Origin: Phycisphaerae bacterium
GTDB taxonomy: Bacteria > Planctomycetota > Phycisphaerae > SM23-33
Reading direction: 5' to 3'
NCBI GenBank assembly: GCA_011050235.1
Contig: DRGC01000032.1
Coordinates: 30,042 to 94,041, forward strand
DNA: 64,000 nt
The notes under the pieces are model-generated. The model was not told where the DNA came from, made no database searches, and saw only the letters and a program-made list of their open reading frames with translations. Positions 1-40,441 of the stretch are shown piece by piece. The translations under genes and the position numbers were made by a program. Each line of letters begins with the position of its first letter. Position 1 is the stretch's first letter.

Positions 1-103
1 TTGGCCCAAAGCCTCGTACATTGCTTGAGTCACTGTGGTCTGAAATCGAAGAAAGCCTGTATCCCTCTTGAGATCGCTGATCTTCTCGAATAAGCGCATC
101 ATG
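1..103 (-). CDS. 5' end of a small ORF running off the left window edge (hypothetical)
   Basis: An ATGATG start at 98..103 on the minus strand is in frame to the window edge (MMRLFEKISDLKRDTGFLRFQTTVTQAMYEALGQ...). It sits in the low-GC island downstream of the peptidase gene. Partial. Confidence 0.3.
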
Positions 104-187
104 ATGGGTCTTTCTCCTTCTCTTTCTGCCGAACGCTTTGCCGCTCAACGGGAGGGAAGTCCGTAGAGCGGCCGGTCGAGCGCCTGG

Positions 188-958
188 TTAGAAGCTTTCT
201 ATCAATTCGTGAACATAATACGAAGGTGTTACCATGGCTATTTTCCCCCCAGTCTTGTCTGAGATAGTGCCATGCATAACGCCATAGAAACATGTACCAT
301 TCCCCGTCGTTGTCATTGAGCCTGCCTTGAAAACGGACAGATCAACGATTGGACAACCACTATATCCTCCAACGGAAGGGTTCTCTAAAGCAAAGAAAGT
401 CTGTGGTGTCCTGGTGTCACCCCTAGGCAATGTTAGAAAGCCACTGGAAGCCTTTGATTCAAATGTAAGGGGACTAAAGTATCCTTGAGTACCTAATCCC
501 AGCGGGAATCCAATTGATGTCAGAATTAGTTCTCTGGCTGGCGCTGACTTCTCTTCAGAAAAGAATTCTAACGGAAGAAATCTGTTTTTCAGGGAAGCCC
601 CTGTTTGTGAATCCTGTGGGAACAGTTCAAATGCAGCCAAATCAGCTTCACTATGAGCTTTCCAGTCTAAGGAGGACTTTTCCACCAGCTTCTTAATAGG
701 AATCGTAAGCGGCCTATCGTCGTCGTCCTTAACAACAATATTGTCATTGATGGATATGTCATCAGCAACATGCTTTGCTGTTAAGACAAATGGCCGATCA
801 CTGCAAGCAACAAGAGTTCCTGTTCCACCTATATCGCTACTACAAACTTGGTCTCTCAGATTAACTACCATTCTAGCGATCAGTTCAAGAGGCAGTATGT
901 TACCCATCGTTCTCTTTCCAACAGTTGATCGAACGGAATTCCGTTGAGCCTTGGTCAC
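188..958 (-). CDS. trypsin-like serine peptidase (S1/Trypsin_2-like), no signal peptide
   Basis: All three catalytic-triad elements are present: His in TAKHV, Asp in DLAAFEL, and a GDSGGP-like GYSGCP serine motif. No N-terminal signal peptide. About 45% GC against about 67% elsewhere. The start may be the internal MGNIL. Confidence 0.6.
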   Translation of the reverse strand: MTKAQRNSVRSTVGKRTMGNILPLELIARMVVNLRDQVCSSDIGGTGTLVACSDRPFVLTAKHVADDISINDNIVVKDDDDRPLTIPIKKLVEKSSLDWKAHSEADLAAFELFPQDSQTGASLKNRFLPLEFFSEEKSAPARELILTSIGFPLGLGTQGYFSPLTFESKASSGFLTLPRGDTRTPQTFFALENPSVGGYSGCPIVDLSVFKAGSMTTTGNGTCFYGVMHGTISDKTGGKIAMVTPSYYVHELIESF

Positions 959-1097
959 GGGCCAGGCTATGCAGGATTCAGCATAACAAGGATATGGCCA
1001 TGCTCAACGGAAAAAGAAAACGTCCTGCCGACCCGACTCTTGGGCAGACCGGCGGGCCGGCTGATGGGCCTGCCCGCCGTAGGCGGGTGTGAGAGTT

Positions 1098-1970
1098 TCA
1101 GGCGTGGTCGGCGCGGAGTAGGGCTTGGTCGGTGGCGTGTTGGCGGAGGGTGGAGAGGTCGGCGGCGGCTGGGGTGTGGGTCAGGTCGGGGAACTCGTTG
1201 GCTCGAAAGCATGGGCGGTATTGGCCCATGATGTTGATCGCGCAGCCGGGGGCGGCTTGGGCGACGGTGTCGATGACGCCGCGGCTGTTGGCGAGATCGT
1301 TGGGCATGACGAGGTGCCGGACCAGAACCCCCCGGGTCGCAACACCGCGCCGGTCGGTCTGCAGCTTGCCCGTCTGCCGATACATCTCAGCCAGGGCGGC
1401 GGCGGCGACGGCCGGGTAGTCGCTCACGCCCGAGTACGTCCGCCCGCGGGCGGGGTCGGCCCATTTGAAGTCCGGCATGTAGATCTCGATCAGCCCGGCC
1501 AGCAGCTCCAGCGTCTCGACCCGCTCATAGCCGCCGCAGTTGTAGACGACGGGCACGCTCAGCCCGCCCGAGCGGGCGATGGCGATCGCCTCGGCGACGG
1601 CGTGGGCGACGTGGGTGGGCGTCACGACGTTGACGTTCTCGCAGCCGTCGCGCTGAAGACCCAGCATCATCTCGGCCAACTGCTCGGCCGTCACCGCCCG
1701 GCCGCGGTCGCTGTGGCTGATGTCGGCGTTCTGGCAGAACACACAGTCGAGGTTGCAGCCGGCGAAAAAGATCGTCCCGCTGCCGCCGCGGCCGACCAGG
1801 ACGGCCTCTTCGCCGAAGTGCGCCCCCGCCGAAACCACGACCGCCCGCTCGCCGATGCGACACGCCCCCACCTGCCCGGCCGTCCGGTCCACGCCACACG
1901 CCCGCGGACACAGCCCGCAATCGCGGATAAGCTCCCGAAGCTGATGCACGTTGTCCGCCAAGGCAGGCAT
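1098..1970 (-). CDS. radical SAM protein, PflA/PflX-like (glycyl-radical activase / AmmeMemoRadiSam-type) family
   Basis: A CxxxCxxC cluster is embedded in AGCNLDCVFCQN, and the N-terminal CGLCPRAC motif is typical of this subgroup. About 290 aa. Confidence 0.7.
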   Translation of the reverse strand: MPALADNVHQLRELIRDCGLCPRACGVDRTAGQVGACRIGERAVVVSAGAHFGEEAVLVGRGGSGTIFFAGCNLDCVFCQNADISHSDRGRAVTAEQLAEMMLGLQRDGCENVNVVTPTHVAHAVAEAIAIARSGGLSVPVVYNCGGYERVETLELLAGLIEIYMPDFKWADPARGRTYSGVSDYPAVAAAALAEMYRQTGKLQTDRRGVATRGVLVRHLVMPNDLANSRGVIDTVAQAAPGCAINIMGQYRPCFRANEFPDLTHTPAAADLSTLRQHATDQALLRADHA

Positions 1971-1983
1971 GGCGCTAGTGTAG

Positions 1984-2105
1984 CAAAGCTAAAAGCTGAA
2001 AGCTTAAAGCTGAAATTCAAGAACGACCGCCGCGACACGATACCGATTCTTGTTTTCAGCTTTTGTCTTTCAGCTTTAAGCTTTCAGCTTTAAGCTTTTG
2101 TTTCC
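1984..2105. repeat. inverted pair of heptanucleotide tandem arrays (NAAAGCT)x5 ... (TTTNAGC)x7 around a ~35-nt spacer
   Basis: CAAAGCT AAAAGCT GAAAGCT TAAAGCT GAAATTC, then a spacer, then TTTCAGC TTTTGTC TTTCAGC TTTAAGC TTTCAGC TTTAAGC TTTTGTT. It overlaps the stop of the DUF502 gene and lies upstream of the radical SAM gene. Confidence 0.8.
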
Positions 2106-2770
2106 GCTCCTTTGTCGAAGTTCATGTGTTCTGGCGTGACGGCGCCGCCGGAGACGATGAACGTCATCGCTTCGTCGACCGTCCAGTCGGTGGCGGTGAT
2201 CTTTTCGATCGGGACGATCTCGAGATAGCCCGAGGTCGGGTTGGGGGTGGTGGGCACATAGACGGCCGCGAGCTTTCGGCCGGTGTCGGAGTCCTCGAAC
2301 GTTCGCGTCACCAGGCCAACCGTCTTCATCTCCGGCGACGGGAAGTCGATCAGGACGACGCGTTGTACGTCGTCGGGGCTGGTCTGGAAGGTCACTAGCA
2401 GCTTCTTGGTCGCACCGTAGATGATCTTGACGATCGGGACCTGCTCCATCACCCAGTCCAGCAGGCCGATCAATTGCCGACCGATGACCTTGGTCGCCAT
2501 CCAGCCCAGCACCAGCAGGACCAACACGACCAGCACCACCGCCACGGCCGAGAGGAAGAACGGGTTGGTCACCGTCTCGGCCAGCCAAGGCGCGTGCGGG
2601 CGGATGGCCTTGGCCAGTTGCTCCACGGGCGGCCCGCCGACGGTCGTCAGGATCCGCACGACGAACGCCACGATCACCCACGTCACCGCCAGCGGGATGA
2701 TCGTCAGGATGCCGGCGATTAGGTACTTCTTCATGGCGGCGCCGAACGGGTTGGATTTCTTCCTGGCCAT
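2090..2770 (-). CDS. DUF502 family membrane protein
   Basis: The N-terminus MKKYLIAGILTIIPLAVTWVIV..., a second TM segment, and a YVPTTPNPTSGYL C-terminal region match the DUF502/COG2928 pattern. An alternative start lies at 2734. Confidence 0.65.
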   Translation of the reverse strand: MARKKSNPFGAAMKKYLIAGILTIIPLAVTWVIVAFVVRILTTVGGPPVEQLAKAIRPHAPWLAETVTNPFFLSAVAVVLVVLVLLVLGWMATKVIGRQLIGLLDWVMEQVPIVKIIYGATKKLLVTFQTSPDDVQRVVLIDFPSPEMKTVGLVTRTFEDSDTGRKLAAVYVPTTPNPTSGYLEIVPIEKITATDWTVDEAMTFIVSGGAVTPEHMNFDKGAETKA

Positions 2771-2851
2771 TGGGGCCCCTTTCTATGTGTGGTCGCCCCG
2801 AAGTCTACGCGCCAGCGCCGGCGGCTGAAAGCTTAAAGCGGCCGGGCGGAC

Positions 2852-2908
2852 GGCCGGGCGAGTGCGCCGGCGAGTTGGGGCAATATCTCGGTCGACAATA
2901 CCAACCGG
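2852..2908 (+). repeat. ~57-nt dispersed repeat, copy 1 (upstream of PEP-CTERM gene)
   Basis: The core GCGCCGGCGAGTTGGGGCAATATCTCGGTCGACAATACCAACCGG matches 3904..3948 at 43 of 45 positions. GGCCGGGCGAG lies upstream in both copies. Confidence 0.8.
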
Positions 2909-3209
2909 TGGGTGGCGGCGAAGGACACCATGAGGATGACGCATCCTGCCAAGAGTCTTGCCAAGAACGATGTTTTTTGATTGAACCCCCCCCGAATTTG
3001 AAGTAAACTACGCGTGTTGTGTAGAAACCAGCAGGCAATTCCTCGTGCTTTTGACAGAAACACTTCTGTTCCACTCGAGGAAGAGGAGGAGGCCATCTTG
3101 TGGAGGGCAAGCAAGAGAACCGTGACGGTGGCCCGCTGTATGAAGAACATCCATTGCGATGCGAACTTGAGACGAAGCGTTTACCAATACCAAAGCGAGG
3201 AGAAGCACG

Positions 3210-3875
3210 ATGAAGACGATTCGGACCATTCTGCTTGGCTTGGCGCTAACCTGTGGGCTTTCGACCGTAGCTTTCGGCGCCACGTTCGTTCAGACAACCC
3301 CGTACTTTAGCGCCGGTGACAGCCCGTTCAACACGGCGGCGCCCGGGTACCAAATCGAAGACTTCGAGGACTTGACCTTGAACACCCTCGGCATTCTTTC
3401 GTGGAGCACCTCCTTTGGCTCAGGGATATCTACGTTCTCGGTCGATGCTGATGACGGCGTCATCGACGGGTCAGGGGCTGGGGGGAAGTCGCTGTCGGTT
3501 GTCACCAGTGCAGGGGTCACCGGGTTGTTTATCAACTTCGATAGTGTCACATTTGGGCAATTCCCACAGGACGTCGGCATTGTGGTCACCCTTGCCAGTG
3601 CATTTCCTCTGGTCATTGAGGCGTTCGACCCTCTGGGCTTCTCGCTGGGAACGACCACGGCAAACTTGGCCTTGTCATCGCCGACCGGCGATGATGTGTT
3701 CTTCGGCGTAACGGACGTCGGCGGGATTTCGAAGTTCCACGTCTACTCAAACAGCGCGGCCACGTTCCTCCATGTGGACCACCTGCAGTACGGCCCTATC
3801 CCCGAACCAGCCACGATGAGCCTGCTGGCCCTGGGCGGCCTGGCCTTGCTACGGCGCAAGTCGAAGACCCCCTAG
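3210..3875 (+). CDS. PEP-CTERM sorting-domain secreted protein
   Basis: N-terminal signal peptide. The C-terminus is PEPATMSLLALGGLALLRRKSK: a PEP motif, a TM helix and a basic tail. Confidence 0.7.
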   Translation: MKTIRTILLGLALTCGLSTVAFGATFVQTTPYFSAGDSPFNTAAPGYQIEDFEDLTLNTLGILSWSTSFGSGISTFSVDADDGVIDGSGAGGKSLSVVTSAGVTGLFINFDSVTFGQFPQDVGIVVTLASAFPLVIEAFDPLGFSLGTTTANLALSSPTGDDVFFGVTDVGGISKFHVYSNSAATFLHVDHLQYGPIPEPATMSLLALGGLALLRRKSKTP

Positions 3876-3879
3876 GGGC

Positions 3880-3948
3880 GGCCGGGCGAGCGCGCAGGCG
3901 GGCGCGCCGGCGAGTTGGGGCAATATCTCGGTCGACAATTCCGACCGG
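3880..3948 (+). repeat. ~57-nt dispersed repeat, copy 2 (downstream of PEP-CTERM gene, upstream of PEBP gene)
   Basis: Same core, with a 12-nt insertion. Same orientation as copy 1, so the PEP-CTERM gene 3210..3875 is bracketed by direct repeats. Confidence 0.8.
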
Positions 3949-3993
3949 CAGGTATATAGTAAAGGTGTTCAGCCGTGGCAAGGAGATCGTGCT

Positions 3994-4587
3994 ATGACAC
4001 GGATCCGAACTATCACCGCGTGCGTCGCCGTTGGGTTGGCACTGGCGATGTCAGCGTGCAACGACAGCCCATCTCAGGCCGCCAACCCAGCCGAATACCA
4101 GCCACCCGAAGAGGCCGCCATGACCATCACATCCACCGCCTTCGCCAAGGGTCAGGCCATCCCGGAGAAATACACGGGCGAGGGCGAGGACGTCTCGCCG
4201 CCGTTGGCCTGGTCGGACGCGCCGGAAGGCGTGCGGCAGTTCGCGTTGATCTGCGACGACCCCGACGCCCCCAGCGGCGACTGGGTCCACTGGGTGATCT
4301 ACATGATCCCCGCCGACGCAGCCGGCCTGCCCGAAGCCATTCCCCCCGGCGAAAGGCCCGCCACGCCCAAGGGCTCGGCCCAGGGGGTGAACTCCTGGCC
4401 CGGGCGCATCCTCGGCTACAAAGGCCCCATGCCCCCACCCGGCCGCACGCATCACTACCACTTCAAGCTCTTCGCCCTCGAGGTGGTGTTGGACCTCGCG
4501 CCCGGCCTGGACAAGCCCGCCCTGCTGGCGGCCATGGCAGGCCACATCCTAGCCAAAGCCGAACTCGTCGGCACCTACGAACGCTAG
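3994..4587 (+). CDS. YbhB/YbcL (PEBP/Raf-kinase-inhibitor-like) family lipoprotein
   Basis: Lipobox AMSAC. PEBP motifs DDPDAP...WVHW and GPMPPPGRTHHYHFKLFAL are present. Confidence 0.75.
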   Translation: MTRIRTITACVAVGLALAMSACNDSPSQAANPAEYQPPEEAAMTITSTAFAKGQAIPEKYTGEGEDVSPPLAWSDAPEGVRQFALICDDPDAPSGDWVHWVIYMIPADAAGLPEAIPPGERPATPKGSAQGVNSWPGRILGYKGPMPPPGRTHHYHFKLFALEVVLDLAPGLDKPALLAAMAGHILAKAELVGTYER

Positions 4588-5107
4588 GTGGTCTTACGTA
4601 AGTCCGTAGCGATCGAGCCGTCGATTCAGGCCCCGGGGGGCCGTCTTGCTTAGCCCGGGGCGAAGCCGTAAGCGTGAGCGCAGCGAGCAGTCGAACGGCG
4701 AGCCCTGGGGAGTGAACCGACCCATGGGAAAGCCCCAACGGGGCGCCTTGAGGGGTCCGATAGCCCTGGCTCGTGTGATGGCACGGCCTCAACAATGGTC
4801 TCAAGCGCGTGGCTGACAAAGCCAAGACACCCCTTGCGGGGCTTGCCGCAATACCGACGATAACCCAGGGCTTGGCCTGACGGCCTACGCCCTGGGCTGA
4901 GCAAGGGACCCCGTTGGGGCCCAACAATCAACAAGGCCGCGCAAGAACTACCCGGGCAGGTCGCACGCCCGCCGGGCGGACACCTGCCATCCAAACGCTA
5001 CAGACTGATGGTAGGACGCTTAGTCGAGGCGACCAATATACGATGCGTTGTATAATGGTCGTGACTATTTTACGATGCCTGCGGGAACGGGGACCCAACC
5101 CGCGCTT

Positions 5108-5500
5108 CTAGTCGATCCCACCACCGCCACCACCACCCATCGCAACCAAGAACAGAAAGCTTATCGCCAGTAAACAGATGGCGATAATCACGGCGATGAC
5201 ACTGGTACAGGCCAACCTCATCGTCTGAAGAAAGACCCCTTCTTGTGGCGCACACGCTACGTATATCGGTCTATCGGCGCGTGGCTGTGGCATATCGCCC
5301 GAAATGCCTGTCTCAAGACTCATCCTGCAGAAGCGGCACACGAGGGCCACATACTTGATCTCTTCGCCGCAATATGGACATGCCTTCATGGCTGCCACAG
5401 TATTTCGCGTGCGGCAAACCGGGCATAATTCGATTTCACCCGCCAGCGAATCCGGCGCCTCCATAGGCGACCAGCAATCGGTGCACCGATAATAGATCAT
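5108..5500 (-). CDS. zinc-ribbon membrane protein (hypothetical)
   Basis: Four CxxC pairs (CTDC, CPVC, CPYC, CRFC) are followed by a TM helix and a poly-Gly tail. Start assumed at MIYYRCTDCW. Confidence 0.4.
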   Translation of the reverse strand: MIYYRCTDCWSPMEAPDSLAGEIELCPVCRTRNTVAAMKACPYCGEEIKYVALVCRFCRMSLETGISGDMPQPRADRPIYVACAPQEGVFLQTMRLACTSVIAVIIAICLLAISFLFLVAMGGGGGGGID

Positions 5501-5600
5501 CGCTTGCCCTTTCGATGTGAGCCCACATGCGCACATTGCCCCCGCGATAGGCACAACTCAAGAGGCGCTTTGACGGGCGCGGCGGGTTGATTAGAATGGG

Positions 5601-6368
5601 TTGATGCAGGTCGTGTCCCTTCAGTCCGGCAGCAACGGTAACTGTTACGTCGTCGAAGGCGGCGGGGTTCGCGTGTTGGTCGACGCCGGGTTGAGCGGGC
5701 GCGAGGCGCGGCGGCGGCTGGCCTCGGTCGGGCGCGATATCGACGACACCGACGCCCTGCTGGTCTCCCACGACCACAGCGACCACAGCCGCTGCGCGGG
5801 GATCTATCACCGCATGTTCGGCGTGGAGATCCACGCGACAGCGGGCACGATGCGGACGGCGTCGCGGAAACTCTCGCTGGGCCGCCTGGGCCCGGTGCGG
5901 CGGTTCCCGCCCGGCCGGGACCTGCACATCGGCGAGCTGCGCGTCGAGACGATCCCCACGCCGCACGACGGGACCGATCCGGTCTCGTTCGTCTTCGATG
6001 ACGGCCGGCGGCGGCTCGGCATCCTGACCGATCTCGGCCACGTCTTCGACGGCCTGGCCGACCTGATCGCGTCGCTGGACGCCGTCATCATCGAGAGCAA
6101 CTACGACGAGCGCATGCTCGAGACCGGCCCCTACCCGCGATTCCTGAAACGCCGCATCCGCGGGCGCGGCGGGCACATTTCCAACATCGAGTCGGCCCGG
6201 CTGATCGACCAGGCCGGCGGACGGCTGACCTGGGCGTGCCTCGCCCACCTCTCGCAGACCAACAACTCCCCCGATACGGCCTTGCGAACCTTCCGCGACG
6301 TGCTGGGCGATGGGCCGGCCCTGCACCTGGCCGGGCGGCACGCGGCCACCAAGATCATGACCGTGTAG
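5601..6368 (+). CDS. MBL-fold metallo-hydrolase
   Basis: The HxHxDH motif (VSHDHSDH) sits in a beta-lactamase-like fold. The N-terminus is typical of the YycJ/PhnP-like group. Confidence 0.7.
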   Translation: MMQVVSLQSGSNGNCYVVEGGGVRVLVDAGLSGREARRRLASVGRDIDDTDALLVSHDHSDHSRCAGIYHRMFGVEIHATAGTMRTASRKLSLGRLGPVRRFPPGRDLHIGELRVETIPTPHDGTDPVSFVFDDGRRRLGILTDLGHVFDGLADLIASLDAVIIESNYDERMLETGPYPRFLKRRIRGRGGHISNIESARLIDQAGGRLTWACLAHLSQTNNSPDTALRTFRDVLGDGPALHLAGRHAATKIMTV

Positions 6369-6393
6369 ATCCGTGTAGATCCAGGAGAACCGA

Positions 6394-8166
6394 ATGGGCG
6401 CGCTTGCGATCGTTGTGGTCACCTTTGTCGGCTATCTGGTCGTCTATCACACCTACGGGCGATTCCTGGCGCGCAGGATTTTCCGCCTGCGGCGCGACGC
6501 CGAGGTGCCGTCGAAAGTGTTCGCCGACGGCATCGACTTCGTCCCGACGCGCCGGAGCGTCATCTTCGGGCATCACTACACGTCGATCGCCGGCACGGGC
6601 CCGATCGTGGGCCCAGCGATCGGCATCATCTGGGGATGGGCGCCGGCGCTGATCTGGGTGTTCGTCGGTTCGATCGTCATGGGGGCCGTGCACGATCTGG
6701 GGGCGCTGGTGATCTCGCTCCGAAACGAGGGCAAAAGCATCTCGGAGATCGCCGCCCGCTACATCAGCCGCCGCGTGCGAACGATCTTCTTCCTGATCGT
6801 GTTTTTGGCGCTGCTGATCGTGATCGCCATCTTCGGCGTGGTCGTCGCGACGATCTTCAAGATCGCCCCCAAGTCCGTGATCCCCATCTGGTGTCAGATT
6901 CCCATCGCCATGATGCTGGGCGTGGCGGTGTATCGCTGGCGGGCCAATCTGGTGCTGGCCACGGTCGTCGCGGTGGCGGCGATGTACGCAACGATCTGGC
7001 TGGGCGCCGCCGGCGGCGACGTCGTCATGCCGGATCTGACGGTCGGGACGTTCGTCCTGCCGGCGACGGGTGTGTGGGTGCTGATCCTGCTGGCGTACGT
7101 GTTTGTCGCCTCGACGCTGCCGGTGACGCTGTTGCTGCAGCCGCGAGACTACATCAACGCGTGGCAGTTGTTCATCGCGATGGGCTTGCTCGTCACCGGC
7201 ATCGCGGCCGCGGCGCTGGGCGAGGGGGGCCTGCCGATTGTGGCGCCGGCGTTTCGCGCCGCCCCGCCGGGGGCGCCGCCGATTGTCCCGTTCCTGTTCG
7301 TGACGATCGCCTGCGGGGCGATCTCGGGCTTTCACTGCCTGGTCGCCTCGGGCACGTCCGTCAAACAGATCCGCTGCGAGACCGATGCGCTGTTCGTCGG
7401 CTACGGGTCGATGCTGCTGGAAGGCGCCCTGGCCGTGCTGGTAATCGTGGCCGTGGGGGCCGGCATCGGAATGGCCTATTCACAGGGCGGACAGACGCTG
7501 ACGGGCACGGCCGCGTGGGACGCCCACTACGCCACATGGTCCGGCGCCAAGGGCCTGTCGGACAAGGTCAACGCGTTCCTCTTTGGAGCGCGGAACCTGC
7601 TGGTCTCGCTGGGGCTCAAGCCCCAGTTCGCACTGGCGCTGATGGGCGTGTTTGTCGCGTCGTTTGCCGGCACGACACTCGACACGGCTACGCGCATTCA
7701 GCGCTATGTCATCAGCGAACTGGCCGGCGACCTCAAGCTCAAGCGCCTGGCCAATCGCTGGGTGGCCACCGCCATTGCGGTAGGCTCGGCGGCGGCGCTG
7801 GCCTTCACCGCGGGCGCCAGCGGCACGGGCGCGATGACGCTGTGGCCGATGTTCGGCGCGGTCAACCAGCTCCTGGCGGCCCTGGCGCTGCTGGTGGTGA
7901 CGATCTATCTGCGCCGCCGCGGCGGGTGGGGGTTCGTTCTCACGCTCGGGCCCTGCCTGTTCATGCTGGTGATCACCATGTGGGCCATGATCAGCAACGA
8001 GATCAACTTCCTGACCATGCCGGTCGCCGAGGGCGCGCTCGCCTATAAGAAATGGGTTCTCGTGATCATAAACGGCGCCATGCTCCCCCTGGCGGCCGTG
8101 GTCGCAGCCGAGGCCCTGACAACGCTGGTCAAGCCCAACAAGCCCCCCGCCGAGCAAGCGGCCTGA
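6394..8166 (+). CDS. cstA: carbon starvation protein A
   Basis: A 590-aa polytopic membrane protein. The CstA signature VIFGHHYTSIAGTGPIVGPAIG is present. Confidence 0.85.
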   Translation: MGALAIVVVTFVGYLVVYHTYGRFLARRIFRLRRDAEVPSKVFADGIDFVPTRRSVIFGHHYTSIAGTGPIVGPAIGIIWGWAPALIWVFVGSIVMGAVHDLGALVISLRNEGKSISEIAARYISRRVRTIFFLIVFLALLIVIAIFGVVVATIFKIAPKSVIPIWCQIPIAMMLGVAVYRWRANLVLATVVAVAAMYATIWLGAAGGDVVMPDLTVGTFVLPATGVWVLILLAYVFVASTLPVTLLLQPRDYINAWQLFIAMGLLVTGIAAAALGEGGLPIVAPAFRAAPPGAPPIVPFLFVTIACGAISGFHCLVASGTSVKQIRCETDALFVGYGSMLLEGALAVLVIVAVGAGIGMAYSQGGQTLTGTAAWDAHYATWSGAKGLSDKVNAFLFGARNLLVSLGLKPQFALALMGVFVASFAGTTLDTATRIQRYVISELAGDLKLKRLANRWVATAIAVGSAAALAFTAGASGTGAMTLWPMFGAVNQLLAALALLVVTIYLRRRGGWGFVLTLGPCLFMLVITMWAMISNEINFLTMPVAEGALAYKKWVLVIINGAMLPLAAVVAAEALTTLVKPNKPPAEQAA

Positions 8167-8189
8167 ACGTCGACAGTTGGACCGGGAAA

Positions 8190-9536
8190 CTAGCTCTTTC
8201 TGGTCTTCTTCTTCGTCGCCTTCTTCCGGGCCGTCTTCTTGCCGACCGCTTTCTTACCGGTGGCTTTCTTGCGGGCCGTTTTCTTGTGGGCGGGCCTGGC
8301 GGCGACGCGGGGCTCGAGGATGTACTGTCCGCGGCCGAGGTCGAACGCGTCGTGCACGATGCGCAGGGCCTTCTTGGCGGACCTGGCCTCGACCAGACAG
8401 GAGATCTTGATCTCGCTGGTGCTGATGTTCTCGATGTTCACGCCGGCCTTGCCCAAGGCGCTGAACATCTTGAAGGCGACACCCGCGTGCGTTCGCATGC
8501 CGCCGCCAACGATGGCAACCTTCGCGAGGTGATCTTCGTAGACGGCCTTGCACTTGAGCTTCTTCGACAGATCGTTGACGACCTTCCGGATGTCCGGCAG
8601 GTCGGTCAGGTCGATGGTGAACGACACGGTGGCCGTCTTTCGGTCGACGACGGTCTGGATGATGTCGTCGACAATGATGTTGTGGTTGGCGACGACCTGG
8701 AAAATCTTTGCGACGATGCCGGGCCTGTTGGGCGTTCCGGTCAGGGTCACGCGCCCAAGCTTTTCCTTGAGGGCCGCGCCCACGACGACGATTCTCTCCA
8801 TGGCTTCGGTGGCAGGCACGATCAGGGTTCCTTTCCTGTTATGGTTGGTGTTGCGAACGTGGATCGGGACGTTGTGGTGCATGGCGAGTTCGACGGCGCG
8901 GTCCTGCAGGACGGCGGCGCCGAGGCCGGCCAGTTGGAGCATCTCCTCGTAGCTGATGCGGTCGACCTTGCGGGCGTTGGGGACGATTCGCGGGTCGGCG
9001 GTGAACACGCCGTCGACGTCGGTGAAGTTCTCGCACACGCCTCCCAACGCGGCCGCCATCGCCACCATCGACACATTGCTTCCGCCGCGCCCCAGCGTGG
9101 TGACGTGCCCATCGGGCGTGATGCCCTGAAAGCCCGCCACGATCACGATCCGTCCGGCGCGGAGATGTTCGCGGACGCGTTCGGCGTCGATGCTCTTGAC
9201 GCGGGCCCGCATGTGGACCTCGTCGGTGATCAGGCGAATCTGCGCCCCGGTCAGGCTGATCGCATCGACGCCGCGCGTGTGCAGCGTCATCGCCATCAGG
9301 GCGATGGTCACCTGCTCGCCGGTGGCCAGCAGTTGATCCATCTCGCGGCGCGGCGGGTCCTTGGTGATCTGGTGGGCCAAGTCGATCAGGGCGTCGGTCC
9401 TCTTGCCCATGGCCGAGACCACCACCACAACCTGGTTGCCCGCACGCCTGCACCGGATGGCCCGGTCCGCCGCCCGCCGAATCTTGTCGGCGTCGGCGAT
9501 ACTCGTGCCGCCGAATTTCATTACGACCACGCTCAT
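8190..9536 (-). CDS. lysC: aspartate kinase with an unusual Lys-rich C-terminal tail
   Basis: MKFGGTSIADADKIRRAA..VVVVSAMGKRTDALIDLA, plus ACT domains. Start placed at MSVVVMKFGG; the upstream extension in the ORF track is rejected. The C-terminal ~40 aa are KK(T/A)ARKKATGKK repeats. Confidence 0.85.
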   Translation of the reverse strand: MSVVVMKFGGTSIADADKIRRAADRAIRCRRAGNQVVVVVSAMGKRTDALIDLAHQITKDPPRREMDQLLATGEQVTIALMAMTLHTRGVDAISLTGAQIRLITDEVHMRARVKSIDAERVREHLRAGRIVIVAGFQGITPDGHVTTLGRGGSNVSMVAMAAALGGVCENFTDVDGVFTADPRIVPNARKVDRISYEEMLQLAGLGAAVLQDRAVELAMHHNVPIHVRNTNHNRKGTLIVPATEAMERIVVVGAALKEKLGRVTLTGTPNRPGIVAKIFQVVANHNIIVDDIIQTVVDRKTATVSFTIDLTDLPDIRKVVNDLSKKLKCKAVYEDHLAKVAIVGGGMRTHAGVAFKMFSALGKAGVNIENISTSEIKISCLVEARSAKKALRIVHDAFDLGRGQYILEPRVAARPAHKKTARKKATGKKAVGKKTARKKATKKKTRKS

Positions 9537-9538
9537 CG

Positions 9539-10726
9539 TTATCTCACCGTTAGAAAGTATTCCATTAGTTCGCACCCGGCCTTGATGTGGATGTCCGCCT
9601 TGGCGGCGGCCGCCTCGCTGAACGGCAGGTGCAGGACGCTCTTGACGCGCTCGCCGGCGACCACGAACGGCACGGCCGCATTGGTTCGCTGTCGCGATTT
9701 GCACACCGTCGAGCGGCTGGGCGCCACCAGCATGCGCCAGTGGCCTTGCTCGCCGCGCAGCCGGCGAATCGCGCCGCCGACCACATCGCGGTCGATGGCC
9801 TCGATCGCGGCGATCTTGCCGGTCACGTCGCCGGCCAGGGCGGCGTCATCGGGCCAACTAACGTGCACGCACACGATGTCGCAGGTATCGATGGCTTCGA
9901 CGGCCGCCTCGGCCAGGGCCGACAAATGCGTGTCCGTGTAGCCCTCGCCTGTGGGAATATCGATCACGTCCCACCCGACCAGCCGCCCGAGCCCGCGAAC
10001 AAGCGGATCGGTAGCCAGGATCGCCCCGCGACAGCCAAACCGCTCGGCGAACGGCTCGACCGGCTGGAGCACCCCTTCGCCCCACAGCCAGATGCCCGTG
10101 ATGGGGCTTTCGCCGAGTTCCCGGCGAATGGCGTTGATCTCGTGGCCCTTCAGCGCCTCGGCCGCCAGGGCCATGATCTCCTGCAGCCGCGAGGCATCGG
10201 GGCCCTTGGGGGCGCCGCGGCGGATCGCCTTGCCCACCACCTCGTAGGGGCACGTGGTCTGCACGTCCAGCGACTGGGCCGACGTCATCAGGTGCCGGTG
10301 TCCGCTGCCCACGTGGAACGTCAGTTGCCCGGGGGCCAACTGCTCGTTCAGCAGGCCGATCACGGCGACGGCTTCCTGGGGCGAAACGGTCCCGGCCGTT
10401 GCGTCGGTCAGCGACTTGCCCGCAACGGTCACCAGGTTGCATCGAAACACCTGCTCGCCGGTCGGCAGGTCCAACCCCAGCCCCAGCGCCTCCAGGGCCC
10501 CGCCGCCGAGGGCGAAGCTGCCCGGATCGTAGCCCAATAGCGCCATCAGCGCATCCTGCGGCACGTGCGGATGGCGCCGGTCGGTGAACCGGACGGTCCC
10601 GCATCGGCCCTGCACCGCCAGCCAATCCATGTTCGGCGTATCGGCCGCGGCCAGCGGCGTGGTGTGGGCCAGTTCGGCTATCGGCTGGTCGGCAGCGCCT
10701 TCGGGGATGACGATTACGTATTTCAT
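9539..10726 (-). CDS. cofactor-independent phosphoglycerate-mutase-like (ApgM/COG3635) protein; candidate non-orthologous homoserine kinase
   Basis: The N-terminus MKYVIVIPEGAADQP is typical of ApgM-family AlkP-superfamily enzymes. It lies immediately downstream of aspartokinase on the same strand, with a 2-nt gap. Confidence 0.65.
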   Translation of the reverse strand: MKYVIVIPEGAADQPIAELAHTTPLAAADTPNMDWLAVQGRCGTVRFTDRRHPHVPQDALMALLGYDPGSFALGGGALEALGLGLDLPTGEQVFRCNLVTVAGKSLTDATAGTVSPQEAVAVIGLLNEQLAPGQLTFHVGSGHRHLMTSAQSLDVQTTCPYEVVGKAIRRGAPKGPDASRLQEIMALAAEALKGHEINAIRRELGESPITGIWLWGEGVLQPVEPFAERFGCRGAILATDPLVRGLGRLVGWDVIDIPTGEGYTDTHLSALAEAAVEAIDTCDIVCVHVSWPDDAALAGDVTGKIAAIEAIDRDVVGGAIRRLRGEQGHWRMLVAPSRSTVCKSRQRTNAAVPFVVAGERVKSVLHLPFSEAAAAKADIHIKAGCELMEYFLTVR

Positions 10727-11745
10727 GGCTCGCGTGGCGAATCCTCATCCTCCGCCGCCGGTACGATCCACAGCGGCGAGGATGGTCCTTCGCTGGTCAG
10801 CACCAGCGTCTTGCCGTCGGCGTCATAGCAGATGCTCTCGCCCTGGCGACGACGTGGCAATTGTACACGCCCGCCGCCGCGGCGAAAGGCCCCAGCCCAA
10901 CTCTCTCCGTCACGACGGACATATTCGGTCGCATTGCCGTAGTCGGCCACGATCGCCCGCCGCCCATCCGGCGATATGTCCATGGCCGTGACCATCGGGA
11001 TCCAGGGACTTGCGATACGGACCGGCACATCGACCAGGCCCGGCAGCCTGAGCATACATCCGCTCAGCACGGCCTTCACGCGCCCGCGATGCGACGCCGG
11101 AGGCAGGGGCAAGATGTAGACCCCGCAAGGCCCCAGGACCGTCTTGCTGACCAGGCAAACGACGCCCGCGGAGACTTGGACGGGCATTGACGACGGGGCC
11201 ACGAGAGAGAAGCCGAATGGCCGGACGCTGGTCGTGTCCACGGCGACCGCCTCGCAGTCGCGGGGGCCGTCGGGATAGCGAAACTCGATGGTCGTCTGCA
11301 CCTCGGCCGAGAGTTCCCGGCCGACCTGGGCTGGATCGACAGCCGGTTCGGGCACGATGTACAGTTGGCAACGATCGCGCTGGGCGTTGTTGTCGCCAAC
11401 GTCGGCAATGAGAAGGTACGCCTGGCCGTGCAGTTCGTAGCTGGCGAGGTCCTCCCAATCGACGTTCTCGGCCCCGGTGATCGTGACGGTCGCCAGCGTT
11501 CGGCCTTGGCGGTCGATGGCGAACAACTGCGGCGGATCGCCCGAATCGTTGTGCGTCCAGAAGACCCCCGGCGTCCGCCGACTGACCGCCAGGCCGCTAC
11601 TTTCATGGATGCGGGGATCGGTCAGCGTCGCCTCGCGCCGGGCCGGCCCGTAGGCAACGCCCCCGGGCTGGGGCCCGCAGGCCCCGATCAGAGCGCCCGC
11701 GGCGACAGCCGCGAACAGTCGACAGATTGATCTGAGCCTTCTCAT
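10723..11745 (-). CDS. lipoprotein, possible beta-propeller (phytase-like/SdiA-regulated-like) family
   Basis: Start at MRRLRSICRLFAAVAAGALIGAC (lipobox). Motifs WTHNDSGD and ADVGDNN are present. The family assignment is weak. Confidence 0.45.
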   Translation of the reverse strand: MRRLRSICRLFAAVAAGALIGACGPQPGGVAYGPARREATLTDPRIHESSGLAVSRRTPGVFWTHNDSGDPPQLFAIDRQGRTLATVTITGAENVDWEDLASYELHGQAYLLIADVGDNNAQRDRCQLYIVPEPAVDPAQVGRELSAEVQTTIEFRYPDGPRDCEAVAVDTTSVRPFGFSLVAPSSMPVQVSAGVVCLVSKTVLGPCGVYILPLPPASHRGRVKAVLSGCMLRLPGLVDVPVRIASPWIPMVTAMDISPDGRRAIVADYGNATEYVRRDGESWAGAFRRGGGRVQLPRRRQGESICYDADGKTLVLTSEGPSSPLWIVPAAEDEDSPREP

Positions 11746-11762
11746 AGGATCGGTCCCGTGGG

Positions 11763-12524
11763 CTAGATGTCGAACGTCGCCATGACCGGCGCGTGGTCGG
11801 AGGGTTTTTCGCCTTTGCGTTCGTCGCGGTCGACCTCGGCGGCGCTGCAGCATCTCGCCAGCGGGTCGGTGGCGAGGATGTGGTCCAGCCGCAGTCCGTC
11901 GCCCTTGGGAAAGGCCAGACGGCGGTAGTCCCACCAGGAGTAGATGCGGCCGTCGGGGTGATGCTTTCGAAACACGTCGACCAGCGGCCAATCGAGCAGG
12001 CCCCGGAAGAGCTCCCTCACCCGGTCATGGCAGAGAACCGAGTCGGCCCATTCGTCCGGATGGGCGACGTCGCTGTCGTCGGGGGCGACGTTGAAATCCC
12101 CACAGACGGCCAGCAGATCGGTCGCCTTGGCGGTCTTGGCCAGCCAGGCGGCGAGGGTCTTGAGCCAATCCAGCTTGTAATCCCAGTGCTCGCAGCCGAC
12201 CTCTCGGCCGTTGGGGACGTAGACGTTGACGATCCGCACACCGTCGACCGTCGCGGCGATCAGGCGGGCGTGCTCGTCGTCGCCGAGGCCCTTGTGGATG
12301 TCCGTGGGCTCGGCGCGGCTGAGGATGGCCACGCCGTTGTAGGTCTTCTGGCCAAGGACGGCTGCGTGGTAGCCGGCCTGCTGGATCGCATCGAAGGGGA
12401 ATACGTCCTCAGCCCCTTTGAGCTCCTGCAGGCAGACGACGTCGGGCTTGTGGCGGGCCAGCAAGGCCAGTAGCCGCTCCAGCCGCGAGCGAATCGAATT
12501 GACGTTCCAGGTGACGAGCTTCAT
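11763..12524 (-). CDS. xthA: exodeoxyribonuclease III
   Basis: MKLVTWNVNSIRSRL...VVCLQELKG and the C-terminal SDHAPV motif are present. The ORF-track N-terminal extension is rejected. Confidence 0.8.
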   Translation of the reverse strand: MKLVTWNVNSIRSRLERLLALLARHKPDVVCLQELKGAEDVFPFDAIQQAGYHAAVLGQKTYNGVAILSRAEPTDIHKGLGDDEHARLIAATVDGVRIVNVYVPNGREVGCEHWDYKLDWLKTLAAWLAKTAKATDLLAVCGDFNVAPDDSDVAHPDEWADSVLCHDRVRELFRGLLDWPLVDVFRKHHPDGRIYSWWDYRRLAFPKGDGLRLDHILATDPLARCCSAAEVDRDERKGEKPSDHAPVMATFDI

Positions 12525-31840: not shown

Positions 31841-34800
31841 GCCTGTGCGCCCCCTTGCCCCTCAGCCGACGACGTTCGCCGCGGCGCCTTCTGCGGCCAG
31901 GGGAGAATGAAGTCCAGGGCCATGGTCCGCAGCGAGCCCGTCTGCTGGGCGTTGGCGTGACGGCGGGCGATCTTCGCAAACTCCGGGAACCGGGCCTCAT
32001 CGGTATAGAACTCGATCATCGTATGCCCGTCGTCCAAACCGGCCTGTGTCCCATCGCCCAACAGCCAGGGCATCACCCAGCGCCCGTGGAACTCCCGTTG
32101 AATGCCCATGCGCGTGACGGCGAATGTCTCCGGGCTCTTTCGATAGCCAAGGAAGACGGCGACGATCGTCTCGCCCCTGAGCATCACGCGCGGGATGTTC
32201 GGGCTGAACTGGCGAGCCGGCGCCCCGGCCCCGTCGGCAAACCACTGGCGCAGGAACTCGTCCACCTGTTGCCAGGGCACGTCTCCAAGCGGCACGAGGC
32301 GGACGTCCTCGGGGATTTCCTTGCGGCGCCGATAACGGTCGACGATGCCCATGCACAGATCTCTGAACGTCACCCCGTCCATTATGTAGATCGATTCGAC
32401 CGTCGTCGTCTCGAAACTCAGCCGTTCCAGGCATTGCCGGAGCACCACCTGGCTCTCATCCTCGACAAGTGTCGACACCATCCGCTTGGCCCCGCCGGCG
32501 GCCGCCCGGGCCACAGCCGCGCGCATCAGGCGTGTCAGGAGCAGCGCCTCTTGCCCATCGCCCTGGGGAGCATCTGTTTGCTGACGCACGCTCAGTTTCA
32601 ACTTGATCGTATTGCCTGTGGGATCTTGAAGCTGCAGGACCACCGCGCCATGGACGTCGTTGACGCCGGCCGGATGTATCACCAGGACCTCCCGGTTGTA
32701 GGGATCGATGAACGGATTCTCGAACATTTGGCACAGCACGGGTTGATCCGAAGGCAACGTCGGCCGGACGATCCAGGTCGTCTGGCCCGGCGCGCCTTTG
32801 GCGGGGGCCCCCGCTTCGCCTGCGCCAGCCTCCGGCGAGAATGTCACCTCTCGTGCGGCGGCGTTTTCCGCCACGTAGTCGTCCAGGCACTCGTCGGCGG
32901 CGGCCAGGTCGTCGATGAACTGGCGCTGCCACTCGGCAATCTCCCGTTGGGCTTGTTGGATATGAGCATCACTGGCGGGAGGCGGCTCATCCAGGCCGCC
33001 ATCCGTTGAGGCCGACTTGCGCTGTGAAGGGCTGTCCCCGGCCTGCATCCGAGCCAGCGCTTCTTGTGCGGCCGTATGGTTCGGATCGATACCCAAGGCG
33101 GTCTCAAAGGCCTGTTTCGCGCGGTCGCAGTCGCCCAGCTCAGTCAGGGCCCTGCCCAGCGCCACGTGTCCGGCCGGGCGGGCGAAATCCACCCCCACAG
33201 CCTGCAGCGCCGCCTCGGCGGAAGGGGCGAACTGTCCCCAGCGATACAGGGCCTCCGATAGGCCCATGTGGCCCGGCCAGAAACCGGGGGCCAATTCGAC
33301 CGATCGCGTAAAGGCCTCAATAGCCCGCGGCAGGTGATCCGTCAGCAGACAGGCCCGGCCAAGATGGTAGAACAGTTCGGGAATCGGTGGGTCGTCCTCC
33401 GCCGCCTGTTCCAACAGGTCCATCGCCTGGTCGGTCTGTCCGCTGTGCAAGGCGATCAGGGCGGCCATCAACTTCCCGACCGGCTGGTCAGGGAACGACC
33501 GGGCGATCGGCGCCGCCAAGGCGAGGGCCTGGCGGACCTGCCCCCCGACATAGAGCGCGTGCGTTGCGGTCAGGGCCCTGGCTACGTGCAACGGATGGGT
33601 GTAGTACAGGCGAAGCAGCAGCGGCAGGGCCATCCTCTCGCGCGAAGAGCCCAGAAACGTTCGAGCCAGGTTCCACTCACGGTCCGTCCGGACGCCCGTC
33701 GCCGCCCGGTCCGCGTGGGCGGCGAAAAAACCGATCTCCTCGATCCATGAAGCCGGGGCGGCCAGGTGATCCGCCGGCGGGCGATGCGGCGGGGCCTGAT
33801 CCCACGACGCGGCCATCTGGATCGACAAAGGCGGCTGGCTGAAGGCCTCCGTTAGCACTCGCCCGTCCATGTCATCGCCCGGGGCCAGGCCGCACAGATG
33901 CAGAACGGTCGGACAGAGGTCGAGGCTATGGACGTTGTGAATCAACTCGCCTTCGACCACGCCCGGCGCCCGCATGACGAAGATACCTTCGCCTCGATAG
34001 ACCGAATCGAGCGGCATCAGTTGCGCTGCTCTGCGCCGAGGCCGTCGGGCAGGCGGCGCAAAGCTGCAGGCCGAGTACAGCACGATCGCAGCGTCGTCGC
34101 CGGCCAACTCCAACAGCCGTCCGAGGAGCAAATCACACAGCCGCACCGCAGCCGCCGCCACGCCGCTGAACAGTTCAAATCCCCGCATGTCCACCCACGG
34201 TAGGCGCGGGGGATGGTATTTCAGAAACTGCATCCACAACGCCTCAATAGCGGGATAGGTCACCGACGTGACGTCCCAGTCGGTCTTCTCCATCAGCCTG
34301 GTCACGACCGCGTGGATGGACAGGGTCTGGGAGACGATGGCGGCAATGGTCACCAGCCGCGGGTCGTGCGCATCGAACTGCCCGAAACGCGGGACGAACA
34401 GGGCCATCGTCTCGGCATCGATCTCTTCCAGGGAGACGACGAACTCCTTGAGGGATCCGAGATGATTGGCCGGCAGGACGCTGCCGAACGGCACGACGAA
34501 CGATGATTGATAGCTGGCGGGGATGTTTCGGAAGAACTCCGGGCTGACGAAGACACCGTTGACGGGCTCGGCCGGCGCGGTGGCGGGGAAACTGACGACG
34601 TTGCAGCGGCGCCCGCTCTGCGAAACGATCTCCCAGAATGCCTTGGCCCGGCGCGACAGGCTGTTGACGGCCTGCACCGCCCCGTTGCTGCGGACCTCAC
34701 TGGGCCCCAGAACGCCGTGTTTGTCGGCGCGCTTGCCGGTCGCGACGGTGTTATGCACGATCGGAGCGATCAGGGGTCCCTGGGTCAAGGGGGTCCCCAT

Positions 34801-34941
34801 CACCCCCTGGTCGACGAGGCGTTGGAGATTGGGCAACTGCCCGCTATCCAGCATCGGGGTGATCTGGCGCCACCCGGCTGAATCCCAGCCGACCATCAAG
34901 ATCCTGGTGCACTTGGCCTGACTCGAACTCATCATTTGCAT
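31837..34941 (-). CDS. 1034-aa protein: N-terminal AlkP-superfamily NPP/type-I-phosphodiesterase-like domain + TPR repeats + unassigned C-terminal domain (paralog A)
   Basis: ILMVGWDSAGW...TPMLDSGQLPNLQRL...HNTVATGKRADKHGVLG resembles the NPP motif around the catalytic Thr, but the Thr position is not conserved. Central TPR repeats. The C-terminal ~350 aa are unassigned, possibly GNAT-like. Confidence 0.6.
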   Translation of the reverse strand: MQMMSSSQAKCTRILMVGWDSAGWRQITPMLDSGQLPNLQRLVDQGVMGTPLTQGPLIAPIVHNTVATGKRADKHGVLGPSEVRSNGAVQAVNSLSRRAKAFWEIVSQSGRRCNVVSFPATAPAEPVNGVFVSPEFFRNIPASYQSSFVVPFGSVLPANHLGSLKEFVVSLEEIDAETMALFVPRFGQFDAHDPRLVTIAAIVSQTLSIHAVVTRLMEKTDWDVTSVTYPAIEALWMQFLKYHPPRLPWVDMRGFELFSGVAAAAVRLCDLLLGRLLELAGDDAAIVLYSACSFAPPARRPRRRAAQLMPLDSVYRGEGIFVMRAPGVVEGELIHNVHSLDLCPTVLHLCGLAPGDDMDGRVLTEAFSQPPLSIQMAASWDQAPPHRPPADHLAAPASWIEEIGFFAAHADRAATGVRTDREWNLARTFLGSSRERMALPLLLRLYYTHPLHVARALTATHALYVGGQVRQALALAAPIARSFPDQPVGKLMAALIALHSGQTDQAMDLLEQAAEDDPPIPELFYHLGRACLLTDHLPRAIEAFTRSVELAPGFWPGHMGLSEALYRWGQFAPSAEAALQAVGVDFARPAGHVALGRALTELGDCDRAKQAFETALGIDPNHTAAQEALARMQAGDSPSQRKSASTDGGLDEPPPASDAHIQQAQREIAEWQRQFIDDLAAADECLDDYVAENAAAREVTFSPEAGAGEAGAPAKGAPGQTTWIVRPTLPSDQPVLCQMFENPFIDPYNREVLVIHPAGVNDVHGAVVLQLQDPTGNTIKLKLSVRQQTDAPQGDGQEALLLTRLMRAAVARAAAGGAKRMVSTLVEDESQVVLRQCLERLSFETTTVESIYIMDGVTFRDLCMGIVDRYRRRKEIPEDVRLVPLGDVPWQQVDEFLRQWFADGAGAPARQFSPNIPRVMLRGETIVAVFLGYRKSPETFAVTRMGIQREFHGRWVMPWLLGDGTQAGLDDGHTMIEFYTDEARFPEFAKIARRHANAQQTGSLRTMALDFILPWPQKAPRRTSSAEGQGGAQA

Positions 34942-35034
34942 TGACGCCTTCGGTCACCGGACGGGGGGCCGCCGTCACAACCACTGCAGCCGCCGACGGA
35001 TGGCCGGGGAGCGCTCGAGCCAGGCCCGCTGAGG

Positions 35035-38000: not shown

Positions 38001-38145
38001 TGGGCAGTTCGCCACGGTCCAGCAGAGGGGTGATCACGTCCCAGCCGGCCGCATGCCAGCCAACCAGCAAGACTTTTTGATCCTTCGGATTACTCTTAGG
38101 CGCCACGGTGGTACTCCTGTACGAGGTGCACTCGGCGTGCTTCAT
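35035..38145 (-). CDS. 1036-aa paralog B of the NPP-like/TPR protein
   Basis: Same architecture. LLVGWHAAGW..TPLLDRGELPNLARV...SSLATGKYPEKHGIFG is a very NPP-like block. About 45-50% identity to paralog A over the N-terminal domain, by eye. Confidence 0.6.
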   Translation of the reverse strand: MKHAECTSYRSTTVAPKSNPKDQKVLLVGWHAAGWDVITPLLDRGELPNLARVLEQGVMGSMTSVRPVMEPMVYSSLATGKYPEKHGIFGTHEMGSYGQSFRPITSLSRRAKAFWEILSQNDVLCNVVNFPTAEPAEETSGSFVGRAFFGSQRTSSWSPVHVPEDSVWPADLASTLQEFIVALEDLDPPTVGLFVPRMSELSFRDDRLAQIASAVTQTLSVHAVATWLMENSQWRVMSVNYPAIEVFSRKFLQYHPPRLDWVDPEEFDLFKDVVNSSVRLCDLLLGRVLALAGEDAAVIIYSPRAYQAHHRVSQTPVSGPRTEAQLHRPQGIFVMRADGTRRDELIHGVRETDFCPTVLALCNVAVPEDMDGRVLTDAFAQPLPQAKTIKTWETRPPVRPALPEDRQPIPWTEQMSFTSAHGGRNALWVQMQNDWNQAEACLNSSRPDLALPLMTRLYYVTPFWTEMAPLVAESLYLHGLTEEAITVMRNFVSVHGQSPAGKCMAGVIAQSEGRDYEALDLFEDAAKDNPPIPQLYLYLGEVHRRAHRLGRAMDCFTQAIEIDSTCIPGYLGRSRVRLASGEHEAAADEALQALSVDFSSAPAHYMLGMCLEKLDDPEQAKQAYANALRFNENFTLAKNRLAHLQSGGELEDVEEEDALPLAGEGPSRWDVDQLRLGVAGARREVSIWANNFIDCFRQADQQLDAYLATNASQLADQDDQAPPAESSEISGPMLTDMGLVVRPIMPADFGQVSEITSRVLTEHHRHDVFVLHREGEIPLIGAVSLRTGDNTGKRIALVPYLASLAAAADVGLDENTARWALIRAGIIRAVASGATAVSYAFSPEGQGQLRESLERVGFRVKKREMVFGMDMAATRDRCLRVVERCRQRQVIPDDVRVVSFRDVPMHKVDQFFQGFFDDGVGPGRLGLDERLSLVILRGDEIIAGYVGHVQDDIWISPRLAVLDEYQNGWATPMLVGYGAKAGYDSGLRTIHLYADESVFPDMIRIGRRTGGKELARTWIMTLDIVVPWSQPGQKKP

Positions 38146-40266: not shown

Positions 40267-40441
40267 AGGCGGCCCTTTCTCAACACGTAACCTACCGTCA
40301 TCATTCCCTTAAAGGCAGCTAGGCCCAAGCCGGCTTGGACGGCTCAGTGAATTATAATGTCCTGCCCGCCTGCCGACAAACGAGAACCCATCCCCGGGTG
40401 CATCGGAATGGGTCGACGGCGGCCGGTCCGCCCCGTCGTCC

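Follow-up and report, generated by a model that had tools for sequence, protein, structure and literature searches.

Genes and repeats at the locus

The region described here lies near the left end of the window, the 64-kb stretch of DNA that was analyzed. A DUF502 membrane protein gene (2090-2770, minus strand; Pfam PF04367, E 1e-27) is the left neighbour of the insertion site discussed below and is transcribed away from it. Its product is 93.8% identical, at the amino acid level, to that of a gene in a sister lineage (989-1675 of contig L171). The right neighbour, on the plus strand at 3994-4587, encodes a PEBP/YbhB-family protein (Pfam PF01161, E 3e-40) with 90% amino acid identity to its sister-lineage homologue, P0121. 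Between the two, also on the plus strand, is a gene for a 221-aa cell-surface protein with a PEP-CTERM sorting signal (3210-3875), which matches Pfam PF07589 at residues 196-217 and has a signal-peptide-like stretch at its N-terminus. The GC content of the bracketed DNA is 51-59%, compared with 65-72% in the flanks.

A first-pass annotation of this DNA had noted direct repeats around the PEP-CTERM gene and its AT-rich upstream region, with a 45-nt core identical at 43 of 45 positions, extents of 2852-2908 (57 nt) and 3880-3948 (69 nt), and the right copy about 45 nt 5' of the PEBP gene. The sequence and blastn agree with this description: the two copies have the same orientation, the DNA upstream of the bracketed gene has a GC content of 51%, and 40-45 nt separate the end of the right copy from the PEBP start codon at 3994. 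The exact limits depend on how the copies are paired. Using blastn, they align over 71 nt at 87% identity, and an ungapped repeat search pairs 76 nt (2838-2913 with 3878-3953) at 86% but leaves the GC-rich 5' part out of register. We took as the true register the gapped alignment against the single-copy site of the sister lineage. By alignment with these empty sites, the left copy of the duplicated target, here called R, occupies 2848-2913 (66 nt, plus strand). The right copy occupies 3876-3953 (78 nt, plus strand), as supported by both blastn and the empty-site alignment. Within them, a perfect 36-nt core, GCGCCGGCGAGTTGGGGCAATATCTCGGTCGACAAT, is found as an exact match at 2864-2899 and 3904-3939, both on the plus strand.

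The core occurs exactly twice in the 64-kb window, where none is expected (100 shuffles), and no third copy is present in the window even with three mismatches allowed. Around genes of the window there is no other long, near-identical direct-repeat pair, the remaining repeat families being diverged paralogous genes. Across 177 fetched sequences (1.39 Mb), R is found once per sister contig, twice per contig with the filled site and nowhere else. Exact sub-cores of 20-24 nt have no match in the genome, metagenome and viral collections, among which the source genome is apparently not included. The earlier suggestion of a shared promoter or operator common to many loci is not supported in that form, since R is confined to one locus in everything searched. 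Part of the promoter reading survives, in that the -35 hexamer of a predicted, conserved PEBP promoter lies within the right copy, as set out below. R is duplicated promoter-region DNA rather than a dispersed promoter.

An empty site in the sister lineage

The sister lineage was reached through a protein search with PEBP, which led to P0121 and from there to the contigs of its cluster members; the contig set of this lineage has the ENA accessions ERZ24794656-ERZ24794672. Five of these contigs (L171, L172, L173, L175 and L176) carry the genes in the order rSAM-DUF502-PEBP-MBL-CstA. DUF502 and PEBP are divergent and separated by a 205-nt spacer that contains one R and no PEP-CTERM gene. The flanking genes of the window and of the sister lineage share 93-95% nucleotide identity and differ at 11.5% of 4-fold degenerate sites. 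In the blastn comparison, window 1097-2908 corresponds to L171 17-1835 and window 3876-4587 corresponds to L171 1762-2474. L171 1762-1835 (74 nt, or up to 79 with the next five bases) is thus represented twice in the window, and the 962 nt at window 2914-3875 have no counterpart in L171. In the multiple alignment, the left flank, including the 16-nt sequence GCTGAAAGCTTAAAGC, runs into the left copy, and the right copy runs on into TATAGT...AGGAG...ATG of PEBP.

The first-pass annotation had offered an inserted cassette as one explanation of the repeats and had proposed to compare related genomes. That comparison bears the insertion out: the site is uninterrupted in the five sister contigs, which are colinear with the window on both flanks and lack the bracketed gene, and the gene is present in five filled assemblies. 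These five are independent and carry an identical filled allele. Four are metagenome contigs (from the Loki's Castle marine sediment metagenome, LCGC14/PRJNA259156, and from JGI 3300005253 and 3300005663), and the fifth is the Phycisphaerae MAG GCA_011050225.1, which is 100% identical to the window region. The companion idea, that cassettes are exchanged by recombination between the repeats, finds no counterpart among these sequences, in which neither a second cassette type at the site nor an excised form was seen.

Farther away, the nearest species representative, a Planctomycetaceae MAG (L011; 52-78% amino acid identity), retains the rSAM-DUF502 ... PEBP-MBL-CstA synteny and lacks both the PEP-CTERM gene and R. 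Its DUF502-PEBP gap (L011 3429-5851) contains a gene for a PMT_2 (mannosyltransferase-like) membrane protein and a dual-specificity-phosphatase-like gene, with no R-like repeats found around them. Because the gap genes of L011 are different, this intergenic position has accepted different genes in different lineages. From the distribution of the filled and empty sites we infer that the insertion took place in the lineage of the window. The opposite polarity, in which the sister lineage lost the cassette through recombination between the repeats, could also apply, as the sole outgroup, L011, has other genes at this position. Even in that case, the repeat-flanked structure must still come from an insertion with duplication.

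The inserted segment and its PEP-CTERM gene

The inserted segment, defined by the gap in the L171 alignment (2914-3875, plus strand; 962 nt), consists of 296 nt of upstream DNA (51% GC) followed by the PEP-CTERM ORF, and its last three bases are the TAG stop codon (3873-3875). Among DNA homologues, the closest is L170 (76% identity), which can be aligned only over 3130-3866 and whose stop codon comes two codons earlier in the alignment. We searched 2914-3129 for remains of a PEP-CTERM paralogue upstream, using tblastn and blastn against the L170, L169 and L165 neighbours, and found nothing significant. At the protein level, homologues with 68% (P0003, from a Phycisphaerae MAG), 70% (P0002) and 56% (P0004) identity sit in tandem arrays of PEP-CTERM genes in unrelated contexts, so the copy in the window is a singleton outside the usual context. 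Apart from the product itself, the protein collection contains no protein more than 70% identical to it, and the window contains no second copy of the insert. For annotation, the PEP-CTERM gene is best treated as accessory.

The GC3 of the inserted gene is 0.75, and that of its neighbours is 0.86-0.93. Low GC was considered as proof of foreign origin and discarded. A second PEP-CTERM gene of the window (42695-43990, minus strand; 431 aa) has a GC3 of 0.76, and a resident gene of the same GC3 means that composition cannot separate a foreign donor from another locus of the same genome. Over 39 nt of sorting-signal DNA, this second gene and the inserted one share 87% identity. No donor locus for the insert was found in the collections searched, and 2771-3993 has no blastn match in PLSDB that would point to a plasmid origin.

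We also looked for features of mobile elements. The only domain-bearing ORF of the insert is the PEP-CTERM gene, its 5' part encodes no recognizable protein, and no transposase is present; nor do terminal inverted repeats join 2914 and 3875. These results, together with a duplication of 65-78 nt, led us to reject a transposon. Integrase or recombinase families are absent from the called genes within about 10 kb. Window 1-12000 contains no tRNA, and a tRNA-targeted island was discarded for want of one nearby. On reading the sequence, no attC-type RYYYAAC ... GTTRRRY pair was seen, which removed an integron cassette from consideration. The repeat has no detectable dyad symmetry. A structured RNA or riboswitch was rejected from an Rfam search of 2771-3993, which returned no match at E ≤ 1, and from the folds of both strands of both copies, which are no better than those of shuffled sequences (z -0.7 to +0.2).

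State of the two copies and the PEBP promoter

Compared with the sister lineage, the right copy differs by one substitution and one 1-nt indel over 78 nt, and shares 96-97% identity with the one copy carried by L171-L176. The left copy has six substitutions, two in its 5' part and four in its last 14 nt, as well as a 12-nt internal deletion between GCGC microrepeats. Both window copies read GGGG-CAAT where all sister contigs have GGGGCCAAT, with one C more. A state common to both copies is expected if the resident sequence was the one duplicated. The shared state favours a resident origin, a reading tempered by the lack of an outgroup to polarize the C state and by possible gene conversion.

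A sigma-70-like promoter is predicted upstream of PEBP (TCGACA-17-TATAGT, 3932-3960, plus strand), matching 10 of 12 consensus positions. It is the sole such site in 2700-4100, and its bases are identical in the sister lineage. The predicted -35 box lies within the right copy and the -10 box just beyond the repeat boundary. At the left copy TCGACA is retained, GGCGGC follows in place of a -10 box, and the scan of 2700-4100 returned no promoter-like site there. Judging from the consensus matches and the pattern of substitution, the upstream half of the PEBP promoter appears to be conserved in the right copy, and the left copy appears to be a decaying, orphan half-promoter. In annotation, promoter function should not be assigned to the left copy. 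Between lineages, R has one substitution in 78 nt, compared with 11.5% at 4-fold sites, and this degree of conservation would fit a regulatory role for the intact spacer.

How the changes in the left copy are distributed depends on the status of its 3' end. Six substitutions over 66 nt, with none in the 36-nt core, gives a hypergeometric P of about 0.007; taking the last 14 nt as junction homeology removes the significance of this clustering (P about 0.09). These last 14 nt match the ancestral sequence at 10 of 14 positions, for which the binomial chance is about 0.002 at p = 0.3. Their four changes compare with about 0.9 expected neutrally since the split (Poisson P about 0.01).

Origin of the duplication

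Taken together, the empty and filled sites make it very probable that the repeats are the scar of a gene insertion accompanied by duplication of target DNA. The ancestor would have had divergent DUF502 and PEBP genes about 205 nt apart with one R between them, as the sister lineage still does. A 962-nt segment, carrying the PEP-CTERM gene and its own upstream region, would then have inserted into R, and the same event would have doubled 65-78 nt of R to place one copy on either side of the insert. The right copy would have stayed joined to the -10 box, serving as the upstream half of the PEBP promoter.

As for the route, a one-step duplicative insertion is the one we tentatively put forward, at a little short of even chances. 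Replication may have switched template to donor DNA and returned about 70 nt behind its exit point, or a fragment may have been captured at a break with staggered ends of about 70 nt that were then filled in. A one-step event of either kind implies that both copies share the sequence state of the resident lineage. Plain duplication does not account for everything, however: the surplus of differences in the final 14 nt of the left copy requires either junction homeology or error-prone synthesis in addition. We read the 10/14 match at the left junction as probable imperfect homology at an illegitimate join. The 36-nt identical core would, we infer, be long enough for a RecA-type deletion of the cassette. 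We know of no bacterial mechanism that routinely gives target duplications of about 70 nt. A literature search for named precedents returned mostly eukaryotic work.

Alternative explanations and known systems

The main alternative, doubtful but still plausible, is insertion-duplication of the Campbell type, in which a circle carrying the PEP-CTERM segment and R integrated by a single homologous crossover within R, leaving hybrid copies; the R of the circle could derive from a related strain or from an illegitimate join that took place beforehand. A single crossover yields exactly this structure, turning the one target copy of the empty site into two direct copies on either side of the insert, with no transposase or inverted repeats needed and with reversal by recombination built in, as in the insertion-duplication mutagenesis practiced in transformable bacteria. 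A perfect 36-nt core with less similar ends fits a crossover inside the core, and donor-derived sequence could explain why the left copy has so many changes in its last 14 nt. However, a circular, target-bearing donor is required and neither donor nor circle sequence was found in the collections searched, and R would already have to be joined to both ends of the insert, making two rare steps instead of one. A stretch of 65-78 bp is short for an efficient RecA crossover and far below the homology usually needed for efficient insertion-duplication. The sequence states also argue against a donor copy: the lineage-specific GGGG-CAAT of the resident lineage is common to both copies, and, relative to the sister lineage, the presumed donor-derived part of the right copy has one change in about 45 nt, against two changes and the 12-nt deletion in the presumed resident part of the left copy.

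Selection might instead have kept the repeat as a shared cis-regulatory element that co-regulates DUF502, the PEP-CTERM gene and PEBP, with the core constrained in both copies. We consider this unlikely. The predicted -35 box in the right copy, the better conservation of R between lineages than of 4-fold sites and the absence of left-copy substitutions from the core (P about 0.007 with all 66 nt counted) speak for it, yet it accounts for conservation and not for origin, and the empty site shows that the second copy came with the insertion. Moreover, a -10 box and 12 nt are missing from the left copy, the clustering weakens to P about 0.09 once the last 14 nt are treated as junction homeology, and neither dyad symmetry, RNA structure nor further copies 5' of other genes were found. 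It is improbable that R is an attachment site into which a recombinase encoded elsewhere inserted an integrase-less cassette, the copies being attL and attR and the cassette excisable or exchangeable. In its favour, the two copies are direct repeats whose arms diverge around an identical 36-nt core, and, as with integrative elements, the segment between them is missing from relatives. The insert also ends precisely at the stop codon, and in L011 other genes fill the DUF502-PEBP spacer. Against this, the insert is a 962-nt segment with one cargo gene, there is no integrase in it or within about 10 kb and no tRNA, and the similarity spans the whole 65-78 nt of resident sequence, beyond any core. 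Neither the window nor the 1.39 Mb of fetched loci contains another cassette, another copy of R or a comparable pair of repeats, and both a second indel 0.7 kb away and the spacer genes of L011 are without such repeats. That R is a dispersed repeat, REP- or MITE-like or a common promoter, occurring twice here by chance is hardly credible. Only the two copies themselves suggest it; with only two copies in the 64-kb window, no further locus in the 1.39 Mb fetched, a single copy at the same locus in the sister lineage, no exact sub-core match in the genome, metagenome and viral collections and no significant hairpin, the data point the other way.

The footprint has the form of an insertion-duplication or a target-site duplication, and every mobile-element family considered differs from it in a defining trait. 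Like transposition, the event has directly duplicated a resident target around an insertion and gives the classic look of filled and empty sites. Target-site duplications of bacterial IS elements and transposons are about 2-14 bp, in contrast to the 65-78 bp seen here, where there are no transposase, terminal inverted repeats or other insert copies. As in an integron cassette, a single ORF lies between repeats and the downstream repeat begins right after the stop codon. Unlike one, the segment has no attC-type imperfect palindrome, integron integrase or array, and its ORF brings 296 nt of its own upstream DNA. A mechanistic parallel may be with FoSTeS/MMBIR or staggered-break fill-in, by which one event inserts distant DNA and duplicates tens of bases, with an imperfect join, here 10/14. 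Templated insertions with flanking duplication made in these ways have been described mainly in eukaryotic genomes.

Implications of the insertion

The locus offers a clean natural case in which a gene seems to have been gained inside a shared divergent promoter region without silencing its neighbours, and the empty site and the two junctions are known at single-base resolution. Each neighbour would have kept a copy of the control DNA through its duplication. Scars of gene gain of this type are ordinary and well documented, and the locus reveals no new genetic element and opens no major question; its one somewhat unusual trait is how long the duplication is. A duplication of 65-78 nt without a mobile-element gene is a modest curiosity for the study of illegitimate recombination and of gene gain in uncultured Planctomycetota.

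A more far-reaching idea is that R is the target of an integrase-less, single-gene insertion system in Phycisphaerae, supplied in trans, in which a duplication of about 70 bp regenerates the promoter. We regard this as very improbable. If true, it would be a mode of gene gain with a duplication far longer than known bacterial transposition gives; to our knowledge, no bacterial transposition system produces a target duplication of about 70 bp.

Other features of the window

A second indel lies at window 4588-5560, where about 973 nt of 53-58% GC replace about 18 nt of L171 between PEBP and the MBL-fold gene. Within it is a zinc-ribbon-like ORF (5108-5554, minus strand). Direct repeats do not flank this segment, indicating that its route differs from that of the PEP-CTERM insertion. 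Inside the PEBP coding region, on the opposite strand, a Guanidine-II (mini-ykkC) match at 4152-4201 (minus strand) scored 21.7 bits against a gathering threshold of 32 (E 0.68) and was set aside as almost certainly due to chance.

A large hairpin with 36-nt arms occupies window 1985-2098, with the start of the rSAM gene on one side and the stop of DUF502 on the other. The arms are 92% complementary, are separated by a 42-nt spacer and are built from tandem 7-nt units, AAAGCTN. The 16-nt piece GCTGAAAGCTTAAAGC of this hairpin recurs at 2824-2839, directly left of the left copy, and is kept in the empty site of the sister lineage. Rfam matches at the hairpin are to plant miRNA families, far under threshold, and were dismissed as spurious. 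The hairpin could be a terminator or an array of regulator-binding sites.

The first 1000 nt of the window have a GC content of 43-47% and a GC3 of 0.39. They contain a trypsin-like peptidase gene (188-958, minus strand; Pfam Trypsin_2, below cut-off) and adjoin the rSAM gene, which is 70% GC. Upstream, the source contig (L002) has unannotated genes and a DUF4145 gene. This stretch is probably another acquired islet. Farther into the window, tandem paralogues at 38315-42427 form units of about 2.2 kb with 76-80% identity (ORFs 38287-40266 and 40442-42472, minus strand), and those at 34073-38072 consist of similar segments 3.17 kb apart with 74-82% identity.
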